In this document: piece after piece, positions 34,795 through 57,872 of the stretch
How the letters are laid out: every line of letters begins with the position of its first letter
How positions within the stretch are numbered: position 1 is the stretch's first letter
Source of the DNA: Eledone cirrhosa
Taxonomy: Eukaryota
NCBI GenBank assembly: GCA_964016885.1
Contig: OZ024742.1
Coordinates: 363,134,001-363,198,000, forward strand
Direction: 5' to 3'
DNA length: 64,000 nt
Notes under the pieces: generated by a model
Database searches by the model: none
What the model was told of the DNA's origin: nothing
What the model saw: the letters and a program-made list of their open reading frames with translations, nothing else
Translations under genes and position numbers: made by a program

Positions 34795-35002
34795 TATAAC
34801 AAAGGAATTGTGGTAAGGAACCAAATGGACCATAACGCACCAGAGTACTCAATACTTAGGGTAGTAGAGTGGGAAATGGGAAAAAAAGTATGACTCCGAC
34901 GGCAGAGCTCAAGCCGTTTCGACGGCTATTTCTGGACTACTAGTCCAGAAATAGCCGTCGAAACGCATTGAGCTCTGCCGTCGGGGTCATACTTTTCCCT
35001 AT
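34795..35002 (-). mobile_element. TA-flanked fold-back, family F (palindrome centred at ~34940)
   Basis: ~60-bp arms plus ~80-nt tail; homologous to 35683, 36940 and 57750. Confidence 0.8.
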
Positions 35003-35682
35003 ATATATATATATATATATATATATATATATATATATATATATATATACATACATATGTGTGTGTGTGTGTATGTATATATTTATATATATATATATAT
35101 ATTTGTGTGTGTGTCTGTGTGCGTGTATGTATATGTGTGTATGTGAGTGAGTTTATATTAGTGTGTCTGTATGAATATGTATATATATACATATATACAT
35201 ATTATCGAGGTAGTTGTGTGTCAGCCGGAAATTTTTCTGCAGAGAAAATACTATATTTGTCAACTATACATGTTTGGCCCTATATTATATCATATGTTTG
35301 CTATTCACATTGAAACCACAAAGGTGCAGTATATGACATATAACACATATATTTATGACACTTTGTTGAAAATATATTTGGAGAAAAAACATTCAGTTTG
35401 TTTACATTGATTTCATAGAAAACGATTTGTTTCATTCTAGATTGACGTTCTTTGCCAGTATTTCTATAACAGCCACCGTTTTGTAATCCCATGCTGTGCA
35501 CAATACTACGTTTCTCTATATGGCAACATGACTTATGTAAATCTCCAACCATACAAACACACACACAAACACACACACACATTTATATATTTGTATATGT
35601 ATATATATTTATATGCATATATATATATATATATATATATATATATATATATATATATATATATATATATATATATATATAT

Positions 35683-35790
35683 AGGAAAACGTTTAAGACC
35701 CCGACGGCAGAGCTCAAGCCGTTTCGTAAGTATTGGGTACTCTGGTGCGTTATGGTCCACCTGGTTCCTTACCACACTTCCCTCGTTATA
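35683..35790 (+). mobile_element. Family F mini insert (inverted arm fused directly to the tail)
   Basis: aggaaaac..ccccgacggcagagctcaagccgtttcg followed by taagtattgggtac..ccttaccaca. Confidence 0.75.
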
Positions 35791-35866
35791 TATATATATA
35801 TATATATATATATATATATATATATACGATATTAATAAATGGAAACTATATTTATAAAACCATATT

Positions 35867-35931
35867 TATTTCATTATATATATTTCAAGGATACCAAGTT
35901 ACATTATGATATGCCTTCATCAGACAAAATA
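35867..35931 (-). ncRNA. Type I hammerhead motif
   Basis: tattttgt-CTGATGA-agg...cctt-GAAA-tatata-TA-atgaaata, overlapping AATAAA. Confidence 0.75.
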
Positions 35932-36269
35932 CAATATATAACAGTTTTATAAATAGACATTGACGTACCCCTTTTAAAAATTGACCGTTGTCAATATATA
36001 GATAGATAGATAGATAGATATATACATACATATACAATATAGATATTTGGAGACTTACATGTTACAGAAATAGTCAGAAAAAAGTCAATAGGAATATACT
36101 GTACATACGGGAATATACAGTAAAGAGGTAGATAGGTAGTTAGATAGATAGACAAATGTATATGTAGATATCTAGATATATACAGACTGTTAAATAGTTG
36201 TATATATATTTATCTAGGGAGGTGTATATATACATATATATATATATTTATATACATATATATATGTTT

Positions 36270-54569: not shown

Positions 54570-55767
54570 ATTATCTGTCTGTATGTCTGACTGTCTGCAT
54601 TACGTCAGCAATACTAAGCTTAGCTAAGGTGGTTATATATTTCACACAACACTAAACATGAAAGCCGGTAACTATGTATTAGTCAGTCTCTTCTTCATAC
54701 CGTGAGCAAAGAAAATCTAACTTTTAGTGGAGCGAGTGAAATAAAGTCGACCCTGTTGCGATTCAAAACTCAGGTTTGCAGGTTATATATTTCACACAAC
54801 ACTAAAAATTAAAGCCGGTAAAAACATCGCTGTCATAGCTTCAGTTTGTTTACTTATGTGCCTTTACGAGAACAAAAAGTTACTATTTTACCGCTTAGTA
54901 TTGTAGAGAAGCACCGAACCGACTGTTTTCAAACTTTACACATGTAATACATGCGTTTCTGGGAGTGTTCTGAGCAAAAAGAAATTTCAAATGTTCAATG
55001 CCCTAGGGACCGCATTAGGCGATTTAGCGATCTCTCTCTCTTAGTCTTTCTCTTTTTTAGATAGATACATACATATAACGTCGCGCCCTTATAATATCTG
55101 TCTGTATGTCTGGGGTCTGCATTACGTCACTTTCCTGAGGATGTCTGTCTGTGTGTGTGTGTGAGTTTGAATCCCTAAAACTCGAGAAGTACCCAACAGA
55201 TTTTATTCAAACTTTACATGTATATGACTTATTTTTCAGGTAGTGTTATGCACATAAAAAATTCAACTTTTTTTTTTATCTCCTAGGGCCCGCATTAAGT
55301 GAAAAACTGCGTTTTTTAACATTTTTAGGTTTTTTTTTTTAGGTGTTACGTCACACCGATTTCCTTGAAATTGTGACTATGTATTAGTCAGTCTCTTCTT
55401 CATACCGCAAGCAAAGAAAATCCAACTTTCGTATGGCCTAGGACCCGCATTAGGTGAAAAACTTCATTTTTTCAGCATCTTAGTGCTTTTTGGAGGCGTT
55501 ACGTCTAGCCGATTTTCCCGAAATTTCAAGGCATATTATGCACATAAAAAAAATTCATTTTCTTGATGCCCTAGGGCCCGCATTAGGTGAAAACCTACAT
55601 TTTTCCTGTTTTATCGAGGAAAATCTTAAAGATTATCCAGCCATCAGAGTATTCGGTTTGTATTCTTTACATATTGTCCAGGCATGCAGTTTTTCCATGA
55701 TTAGATCTGTTGGCGGCCCGCGTTCCAAAAGACCTTATCCCGTGCAATGCCGGGTATCACTGCTAGT
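54570..55767 (+). mobile_element. Non-autonomous Helitron-like element(s)
   Basis: 3' hairpin cccgtgcaatgccggg followed by CTAG-T (55763-55767); tctgtctgtatgtctg start motif twice; repeated cctagggcccgcattaggtga. Confidence 0.7.
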
Positions 55768-56249
55768 AGTTTATAAAATAACAAGTCACTTTGATGCTAT
55801 TTATTTCGCATACTTACTTCCAATTAACGCCATATAAATGTAAGAAATACCATTTTAAATATTATATAACATTTTATAATCCAACCTTCTTATTTTATGA
55901 ATTAAATCTGTTGATATTTAGACTGCATTATCAAATATAAAAACTCTAATGAACACCAGAGTTAAGATAAAATCCTTAGATACATATTCTAGTCGGGAAT
56001 AGATGAAACGGTTTATCGTGTCTCATACAGTAATTTCTATTCGGTAATATTTTGTTGAAACCTTCTTTGTTTTATTTTGAGAATAAAAGAGTAGACAATA
56101 TAATTTACTATGAACTAATAATAATACCACTCTCAATGTGAAACATCATATTTTCTTTCATAACTAACCTCAAGCAAGTAAACCCGACAAGTCATGTGCT
56201 GATGTCCGAGATATTTTGACGTAAACAAACGAAACAGTGGTTTCTGATA

Positions 56250-56640
56250 ATAGACCCCATGTGAGATATTGGTAAGCGAAAAAATACCTTTTCTCAAGTG
56301 AAACATGATTGACAAGTGAGCAAGTACCTGGCCTCAAGTGAGATTGGGTTGACAAGTGAAAATGTATCTGCTCTCAGTTAAGAAACGATTGGTGACAAAT
56401 GAGGAAGAATCTCTCGCAAGTATGAAATGAATGTCCTTAAGGGAGAAACGATTACTCCAAGCTAGAAAATCTACCTTCAATTGACAAAGGATTGTTCGCC
56501 TAAAGAGGAAGAACTGACCTCAAACGTAAAATATCTGACCTTAAATCAGAAAGGACTGCACTTATGTGAGAAAGGATTGATCATAAAGCAGAAAGGTCTC
56601 TTCATAAAGAAATTTACCCACAAGTAGGAGAGCATTCAAT
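56250..56640. repeat. Degenerate ~20-bp minisatellite
   Basis: Recurring caagtgag(a)aa..tgac/cct units. Confidence 0.6.
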
Positions 56641-57749
56641 GTTAAAAACAGTGAATCTTTTAGGTTTCATTATATTGTTCCAGCATCATTACACTTTTCC
56701 TTGCGAAGTGTATCTTTGTCAAATTTAATCAACAGCGAATACATGTGTTGTTGTTGTGTCTCCGTCATTTCAGTTGACGAGTATTCAAGTTGATTCGATT
56801 GTAGGAACCGCATTCTTATGAAATTAATGGCCAAGTGGATGAACATTAGGTAGACATATAAAGCCTTAATGTATTTCTTGGGGAGTTTTAATGGTACACT
56901 GACTATAACAAAAGAGGCACTGGTAATTACTGGTACAACGAAATGTTGCCATTTTAAGTGGAGTAACGAGAATAAAGTGTCTTGCTCAAGAATAAGTTGA
57001 ACCGCTTGGAATCCACCTCACGACCTCGCCATCGTGAGCGGATTATTCTGACCACAAACTTCATGTAACGAATGGATACACATACGTAATATACAATATA
57101 TTCATTATTCCATACTCTTAGATATGTTTATTCTGTAAATAACCGATATATATATATATATAAAAGTGGAAATATATATACAAGTGGAAATCGAAGCATT
57201 GGCTGCGGCCAAGCAAAATCGGCCTACAATTAGGAATGAGTAGCAAAGCACTCAATAAGGGTAGGCCCCTAGAGTAATAACATACGTTTAGATAGCTTGA
57301 CAAATTGAAAATTGCTGGAGGCAAAACGCAACCATACAATACCAAAACAACGAAAAAGCTAATCAGGTTAGACAACAGACCTGGACAAATCGAACGATAT
57401 TCTGCAATACGTCCGATATGTTTCTATGGATCCGAAATCATCAATCCAACTTACGTAATACGTAAGCTTGTGCATTCAATGATCGAACAGTATATATATA
57501 TATATATATATATAAAATTATCTATTATAAACATGGCGTCGATAGAAGAACTGTTTCTTTCGCATGAAATGATTATACGAATCAAGTAGTTTTGGTTATA
57601 TAAAATCTATTCAATAATGTTCAGGCTTTACTAATGTATTGAGTACCTTATTTACTGAGATTACCCCATATTTAGCACGGGATCTACGCACGCGCACACA
57701 CTTACACACACAAACACACACATATATATTATATATATATATATATATA

Positions 57750-57872
57750 TAAAGGAAAAAGTATGACCCCTGGGGTCATACTTTTTCCTATTTCCCACAC
57801 TACTACCCTAAGTATTGAGTACTCTGGTACGTTATGGTCCATTTGGTTCCTTACCACAATTCCTTTGTTATA
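57750..57872 (+). mobile_element. Family F minimal fold-back (18-bp arms plus tail)
   Basis: aggaaaaagtatgacccc t ggggtcatactttttcct followed by the family tail. Confidence 0.8.

Follow-up and report, generated by a model that had tools for sequence, protein, structure and literature searches.

Fixed outer ends and a bulged tail stem in hairpin repeats of Eledone cirrhosa, most likely the 3' ends of Penelope-like retrotransposons of the Hydra clade

A 64,000-nt stretch of the Eledone cirrhosa genome (assembly GCA_964016885.1, contig OZ024742.1, positions 363,134,001 to 363,198,000 of the forward strand; hereafter the window) is AT-rich animal DNA dense in microsatellites, in which self-comparison after simple-repeat masking revealed many short inverted repeats flanked by TA runs. 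The question raised by this locus is why copies of one repeat family should end one arm at the same position when the junction between their arms differs in every copy, as an earlier note on this DNA had claimed. Judging from their sequence features, these repeats are most likely the 3' ends of Penelope-like elements (PLEs) of the Hydra clade, and their fixed ends would probably reflect priming at two internal sites on one RNA, the second of which may be set by a small RNA stem. Our tallies cover 12 hairpin-and-tail families and 17 short ends, all within the window. Arms are read outward; site 2 is the end of the short (tail-less) arm, site 1 the end of the tail, and the tail is the stretch between them.

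The fixed ends were most apparent in family A, which has four copies (coordinates here and below are window positions):

34798..34999: copy 1; tail-bearing arm on the minus strand (34938 to 34798), tail-less arm on the plus strand (34940-34999), TA runs flanking both sides
35684..35787: copy 2; 43-nt tail-less arm (-) abutting bluntly the distal 61 nt of the tail (+), arms without overlap
36942..37626: copy 3; 180-nt short arm (-), 244-nt spacer, 180-nt long arm (+, 37366-37545), tail 37546-37626
57752..57870: copy 4; 19-nt arm (-), one base, long arm from 57772, tail to 57870; 5' half of the tail stem mutated

All four short arms (34940-34999, ~60 nt; 35684-35726, 43 nt; 36942-37121, 180 nt; 57752-57770, 19 nt) stop at ..TTCC(C/T) ahead of a TA run, with a spread of no more than 2 nt in the alignment, and the inner junction is different in each of the four, the elements spanning 104-685 nt. 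The short-arm end at 57750 was set by alignment and coordinates; its 19-nt arm had been misplaced by automatic mapping and matches its own partner at 18/18 positions. The tail end is also fixed, lying at GTTA in 4/4 copies, ~80 nt beyond the short-arm end. Since eight TA-like 3-mer clusters are on offer within 255 nt of family A sequence, the chance of four copies sharing one of them is about (1/8)^3 = 0.002. The copies represent independent insertions, because their flanks are unrelated (the sole similarity was the overlap between the test windows themselves) and because two sequence variants of the family (34795/57750 and 35684/36942) have the short-arm end in common. The shared end, the differing inner junctions and the independence of the insertions were all claims of the earlier note and are borne out, and the fixed tail-less end in family A is confirmed as real.

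Further short ends are provided by families B, C, D and G, some copies of which are joined to open reading frames (ORFs) with reverse transcriptase (RT) and endonuclease (EN) sequence or to pseudo-long terminal repeats (pLTRs):

1503..4900: family B long copy; Hydra-type RT and EN remnants on the minus strand, tail-less end 1503
44463..45144: family B hairpin; tail-less end 44463, long arm with a hammerhead-like motif, ~185-nt tail with stem at 44969
10017..14403, plus strand: family C long copy; direct pLTR and tail (10017-10342), frameshifted Hydra-type ORF (10385-12837), 3' region, second pLTR
9324..9904: hairpin of a diverged family C subfamily; tail at left (9324-9481), tail-less end 9904, then (TC)n(TA)n
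8930..9251: family D hairpin; 97-nt tail at left, stem at 9019 (-), tail-less end 9251
35828..36200, minus strand: family D single-armed copy; tail-less end 35828, canonical hammerhead core at 35923
18418..18745 (also 6021-6222 and 43911-44039): family G; fixed tail end, two differing short ends, without stem

For the pairs that the earlier note had singled out (1503/44463, 9905/14403 and 9251/35828), the constant end held, with offsets of 0 nt in family B, 1 nt in family C (9904/14403) and 3 nt in family D, in which 15, 23 and 14 TA-like clusters, respectively, were available. Overall the short end is fixed in four of the five multi-copy families, and in family G the tail end is fixed in 3/3 copies. 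TA-like microhomology of 2-7 nt is found at every fixed end, at a constant and not a random position, with 8-23 clusters on offer per family. All 17 examined short ends adjoin TA runs, two of them via a (TC)n run and one, the only end with oligo(A), via the A-run at 1503. In independent copies (TC)n or A-runs separate the element end from the TA run (9905-9920, 14404-14407, 1492-1503 and 1261-1270); these runs, which extend the last element bases, may be due to slippage when synthesis began or may be compound microsatellites that were already there.

A tail of 65-185 nt is present at one end only in the 12 families, and the arms within an element diverge by 4-20%. The arms overlap in neither 35684 nor 43911, and the tail-less ends at 14403 and 35828 stand without any inverted partner; at 14403 it is the second pLTR of the long family C copy that stops tail-less. 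The family B long copy has a shorter inverted copy on the plus strand that terminates in the last ~60 nt of the tail, and its short arm at 1503 includes RT sequence missing from the partner arm. The family B tail was cut short at an internal TC run in our family-wide landmark table.

What, then, are these elements? Families B and C are PLEs. In family C the order is pLTR, tail, ORF, pLTR, with direct repeats (10017-10182 and 14237-14402, 95.8% identity) around the ORF at 10385-12837, which is frameshifted near 11285. Family B is joined to remnants of a like ORF at 2054-4840 (RT/EN match, tblastn E 1e-40). This Hydra-type ORF has 104 homologues (best E 5e-97), of which full-length relatives are about 700 aa, and its named relatives, from Octopus bimaculoides and Argonauta hians, are just 41% identical. 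The motifs RWR (position 41 of ORF 10385), DKT (126), YRDD, CxCx5C, CxxC and CxH are present, the last three all in ORF 11272; DKG is absent and, as read from the translation, the EN has no CCHH. A Pfam search of the ORF gave no RT or GIY-YIG match, and a match to a T3SS domain was dismissed as chance (18.5 bits against a cut-off of 27).

These ORF motifs match the definition of the Hydra clade in section 11 of Craig et al. (2021, PMC8557442), which includes a C-terminal GIY-YIG-type EN without CCHH, RW(K/R), DKT and the CxCx5C linker. The clade is also described as having a hammerhead ribozyme in the pLTR, a (TA)n target, an inverted 5'-truncated copy and a one-sided tail, as seen here. The elements differ from that description in three respects: the copy at 10017-14403 is 4.4 kb and frameshifted, whereas Hydra-clade elements are "generally" short (usually <~3 kb, with one intact ORF); Asn-rich inserts are present; and the tails are 65-185 nt rather than the 30-40 bp stated (PMC8557442). 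Family A has no ORF within the window, and we infer that it is Hydra-type from its shared stem, hammerhead and target. The repeats can be described as 5'-truncated, often head-to-head PLE insertions with pLTRs direct and/or inverted. The earlier note, right about the fixed ends, did not recognise the elements as Penelope-like.

Ribozyme motifs are in keeping with this identity. A strict hammerhead descriptor gave five matches, all in hairpin elements and with their sense pointing toward the tail, and none in each of 10 shuffles; a relaxed descriptor added both family C pLTRs together with three probable chance matches (null 0-5). An Rfam scan of the whole window yielded no hammerhead model match: its 137 matches at E up to 10 were all below gathering thresholds, and were mostly microsatellite artefacts. 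In family A, missed by both the descriptor and Rfam, the putative ribozyme of copy 3 is as follows:

37438..37533, plus strand: predicted type I hammerhead with a non-canonical U3:A8 core; cut after 37528, 17 nt ahead of the short-arm end

Its forced fold has an energy of -19.4 kcal/mol against -24.5 for the minimum free energy (MFE) structure, i.e., 5 kcal/mol above the MFE. At 37443-37449, and in the mirror copy near 37040, U3/A8 replace C3/G8 in both arms, a compensatory swap. In family G an A occupies position 4 of the hammerhead in all three copies that contain the core. The ORFs and hammerheads fix the sense of the elements, and both arms point outward. In family A copy 4 (57752-57789) both arms run up to the predicted hammerhead cut and no further, as would happen if the 5' end of a cleaved RNA were copied on two occasions. 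We kept this junction out of the evidence since it is one of 14 inspected, with a rough chance of ~0.25.

How could two fixed outer ends arise with a variable inner junction? In L1 twin priming, one RNA is primed by two target ends, and the head-to-head inversion that results has an inner junction that varies; one start is at the poly(A), the other at an internal site that is not constant, and the arms have no overlap. The elements here are unlike L1 in that both starts appear fixed and internal and the arms usually overlap, and no poly(A) was found at the tail ends. PLE insertions have been described as truncated at the 5' end, frequently accompanied by an inverted copy, and with a tail of 30-40 bp on one side (PMC8557442, PMC3846280, PMC8969392), and a 34-bp repeat was reported in PMC2377424. 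Frangieh et al. (2024, PMC11167929) found that a Poseidon-clade protein cuts and extends both strands in vitro and starts at two internal RNA sites, the tail being the stretch between them. In the supplement of PMC8557442, an Octopus Hydra consensus is annotated with four copies that terminate at the same site. Since a two-start tail is published for PLEs, the fixed ends observed here are a known PLE signature. The fixed end with its extra tail is a rediscovery of the PLE tail, and the "priming site" of the earlier note was right in kind and already known.

We consider it likely that the following dual-site priming account, with site 2 set by the stem, applies to these elements. The GIY-YIG nuclease of the element would nick a (TA)n run on both strands. 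Reverse transcription would be primed at site 1 by one of the resulting DNA ends and, 65-185 nt further upstream in that RNA, at site 2 by the second, with a few TA-like bases annealing in each case. The two cDNAs would extend 5'-ward for random lengths and then be joined, the outcome being a head-to-head hairpin with two fixed outer ends, a variable inner junction and the inter-site stretch present once, as the tail. A bulged stem 6-12 nt 3' of site 2 would hold the RT and probably set that site. The account unites what is observed in the window (the geometry, the PLE identity of families B and C, the fixed ends, the microhomology, and the stem with its spacing) with the cutting and extension of both strands from two internal starts, which come from another clade in vitro (PMC11167929).

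A different origin of the inverted arm is fold-back self-priming, in which a single cDNA primed at site 1 folds its 3' end back, copies itself until halted at site 2 by a bound protein or the stem, and joins the other target end via TA microhomology. Self-priming has been proposed for PLE palindromes (PMC3846280), the inner junctions at 34939, 1036, 59728 and 57771 are near-perfect palindrome centres, and the arms within a copy have variants in common (172/180 identical positions in copy 3 of family A). However, later deletions would be needed to account for the non-overlapping arms at 35684 and 43911, the short arm that is longer than its partner at 1503, and the site-2 ends without a partner at 14403 and 35828, and the extension of both strands from two starts in vitro (PMC11167929) also speaks against it. 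We therefore regard fold-back as unlikely and infer that both arms were primed. That site 2 can be a primary start is suggested by the partnerless ends at 14403 and 35828 and by the RT sequence that only the short arm at 1503 carries.

The earlier note had further suggested that the fixed end marks a programmed RNA end or priming site 35-65 nt after an AATAAA. In the RNA-end form of this idea, transcripts are cleaved at site 2, AATAAA-directed or otherwise, and two RNAs of different length would then serve as templates, the short for one arm and the long for the other, each from its 3' end. An AATAAA does lie 11-61 nt upstream of site 2 in 8/12 families (shuffle mean 1.1), the short end at 1503 has its A-run, and RNA-seq read ends coincide with start sites in Anolis (PMC11167929). 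On the other side, there is no AATAAA upstream of site 2 in families A, B, E and F, and where present it is loosely spaced to site 2 and tightly to the predicted hammerhead cut (-1 to 9 nt in 6/8 AATAAA-bearing families), which indicates that it tracks the ribozyme. The cut itself is 17-170 nt from site 2 across the 12 families; the most tightly spaced landmark is downstream, an RCTC motif 6-12 nt from site 2 in 10/12 families (shuffle mean 1.0, maximum 5, in 5000). Moreover, 16/17 short ends are without oligo(A). The RNA extends past site 2, since the tail is contiguous with the long arm and in family C runs into the ORF, and site 1 is internal as well, since sequence continues beyond it into the ORF in family C and into a further unit in family F. 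An RNA end set by AATAAA fits these data poorly, and template cleavage at site 2 in any form seems to us less likely still than fold-back; the part of the proposal that stands is the programmed internal priming, unlike the variable twin priming of L1, which is the published PLE mechanism.

Origins other than retrotransposition would be MITE-like (miniature inverted-repeat transposable element) DNA transposons, replication fold-backs at TA runs, or read or assembly artefacts. TA flanks with inverted repeats resemble those of Tc1/mariner MITEs, which have terminal inverted repeats at both ends and a uniform size. In the elements described here the tail lies outside the repeat on one side, inner lengths vary (104-685 nt in family A, as above), and RT-EN ORFs and hammerheads are attached. 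Read fold-back is excluded because of the 4-20% divergence between arms. We attach hardly any probability to explanations of this kind.

The RCTC motif is the 5' half of a bulged stem (RCTC...TW-GAGY) that begins 6-12 nt 3' of the short-arm end in 10/12 families and is complete in eight. Two examples from family A are:

34847..34870, minus strand: stem in the tail of copy 1, ACTC / P2 / TT / GAGT
37554..37577, plus strand: stem in the tail of copy 3, 8 nt past the short-arm end

Perfect RCTC:GAGY pairing occurs in 8/12 tails, compared to means of 0.16 and 0.23 and maxima of 2 and 3 in two nulls of 2000, and seven of the eight complete stems also have the 2-nt bulge and 2-6 further pairs, neither of which was required by the test. 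A window-wide scan with the full motif gave 14 matches (shuffle mean 2.3, maximum 7): nine in known tails, three unexplained, and two new ones (50055 and 57275) upstream of TA runs in the expected orientation. In a descriptive table of 11 rows chosen for pairing, the outer pair is A-U in seven and G-C in four, and the first inner pair U-A in eight and C-G in three. In a MAFFT alignment of the families, the stem came into register in its 3' half only. Whole-tail folding energies are mostly ordinary (z +1.2 to -2.9).

As the motif was defined on window sequences, six published Hydra consensi (PMC8557442 supplement) were inspected by eye as an outside check. The stem is complete in Hydra-2_Amil, Hydra-2_Ajap and Hydra-1_Ajap (twice in the latter), partial in Hydra-1_Amil and Hydra-1_Crog, and none was seen by eye in Hydra-1_Obim. 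A TA-like run lies ~5-11 nt ahead of the stem in 2_Ajap and 1_Crog and ~20 nt ahead in 2_Amil. Searching the same supplement with six 8-mers returned 24 occurrences, comprising four Hydra stems, one stem-like Naiad and others that were apparently incidental. One Naiad consensus fits the tail stem with one wobble pair, and the motif may not be confined to the Hydra clade. The text passages and supplement of PMC8557442 that we consulted make no mention of a tail stem. No description of such a stem was found in the portions available to us of the wider literature (including PMC4209133, PMC7229834 and bioRxiv 10.64898/2026.07.22.740005), although Repbase entries, subscription papers, bioRxiv supplements and figures (Fig. 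S2 of PMC11167929, Figs. S7-S8 of PMC8557442) could contain one; this cis-element is apparently undescribed.

A number of points weigh against the dual-site account or against the part of the stem in it. Hairpin geometry alone cannot separate twin priming from fold-back, and the single-armed copies could have lost a partner. In family G, not named by the earlier note, the short ends at 18741 and 43911 lie 23 nt apart. AATAAA is enriched upstream of site 2 (8/12 families), and most hammerhead cut positions, to which its spacing was compared, were assigned by eye, seven motifs coming from the descriptor. The Poseidon start site in vitro is not homologous to the cut DNA (PMC11167929), in contrast to the TA-like sites here. 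Only the 5' half of the stem is present in family F and at 59581, none is present in family G and at 42717, and it is damaged in the single copies A57750 and E48796. It is the MFE fold in 4/5 tail pieces (z +0.4 to -3.1), not in that of family A copy 3. Lastly, the stem was tested on the same window sequences on which it was defined, and the outside check consists of six consensi read by eye.

From its spacing and conservation in this one window, the stem may position the RT. A fuller proposal, which we put forward tentatively as plausible but somewhat short of probable, is that a bulged RNA stem (RCTC-P2-loop-P2'-TW-GAGY-RC) is common to PLEs of the Hydra clade, from this genome through to those of corals and sea cucumbers. 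The stem would bind the telomerase-related RT and seat a short UA-rich alignment region 6-12 nt upstream in the active site, where the nicked (TA)n end would anneal and prime at a programmed internal site in the manner of a telomerase RNA. If true, it would give PLEs their first initiation-site cis-element shared between phyla. According to PMC8557442 and PMC11167929, it has yet to be explained how PLEs select their start sites and come by inverted ends; the window supplies a small RNA element with defined spacing, natural compensatory variants and a defined (TA)n target, the minimal natural substrates being about 100-120 nt. PLE RTs are the nearest relatives of telomerase RT, and a stem that seats a short internal template beside a repeat primer would bear on telomerase origins. 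The stem would also be useful as a PLE end marker in repeat annotation.

Among characterized systems, PAc (Poseidon, Anolis; PMC11167929) is similar in its two internal RT starts downstream of a hammerhead, the tail between them, an AT-rich target and a stem-loop at the start region. It differs in belonging to another clade and in starting within the ORF, while the starts here carry TA-like microhomology and lie in the 5' untranslated region, and a stem conserved between families keeps a set spacing on the 3' side of site 2. Penelope of Drosophila virilis and the Adineta Pen families likewise have inverted repeats of variable size, palindromic junctions and an optional tail (31-34 bp), although their tails are shorter and they have ordinary target-site duplications instead of (TA)n. 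Non-LTR retrozymes (PMC7229834; bioRxiv 10.64898/2026.07.22.740005) are also short, ORF-less PLE-related units with type I hammerheads, but form head-to-tail tandem arrays rather than head-to-head truncated ends; a tandem trace is seen here in family F only.

The other hairpin-and-tail elements of the window are:

820..1268: hairpin and tail; canonical hammerhead 1069-1113, stem at 1174
7781..8883: family F hairpin; 128-nt tail at left, only the RCTC half of the stem clear
36266..36899, minus strand: family E single-armed copy, terminating at the tail end; stem at 36327; other copies 48796-48976 and 57600-57700
42600..42977: hairpin and ~117-nt tail, without stem
50276..52617: hairpin and 143-nt tail; canonical hammerheads (50380 -, 52369 +), stem at 52482, internal 506-nt tandem duplication
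57886..58236: hairpin and 80-nt tail; canonical hammerhead core at 58018 (-), minimal stem without P2
59581..59941: hairpin and 65-nt tail; RCTC half of the stem only

The family F tail end recurs at the hairpin centre, on both strands (8338-8459), and runs on there into TA-like sequence; the template that this repeat implies is about 560 nt and head-to-tail, whether tandem or circular. Solo tail-like pieces with the full stem, ending in TA runs, occur at 50046-50211 (+), situated entirely between two TA runs, and at 57150-57290 (-). The arms of the family B long copy miss complementary parts of the ORF (2550-2870 and 4146-4343; one a conserved block, the other an Asn-rich insert), and the Asn-rich inserts are reminiscent of those in Adineta PLEs. 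The family C long copy has at its 5' end a tiny TA-rich insertion (9921-10026) with a ~20-nt direct duplication on either side.

Several other repeats share the window. A second PLE type at 14800-16763 (+) has stops, a CX4CxxC linker and a CCHH GIY-YIG (Pfam E 1e-6), without an inverted arm; its motifs suggest that it is Neptune-like, and it ends in GCTC and a 4-bp stem directly ahead of an A/TA run. An apparently intact L1/Tx1-type LINE (long interspersed nuclear element) ORF2 (1068 aa; APE, RT and zf-RVT) and ORF1 pieces are found at 19443-24660 (-) and 28833-32009, a second partial copy being 89-95% identical. Pieces of another non-LTR RT family, with (AAT)n runs at their flanks, lie at 24856-28200 and 32497-33592. 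A SINE-like (short interspersed nuclear element) family of ~190 nt, which may resemble octopus SINEs, is present in at least nine copies (1683-1759, 37709-37890, 38701-39034, 43274-43445, 49473-49672, 53034-53091 and 61774-62143); one copy splits the 3' region of family B, and two others form an inverted pair.

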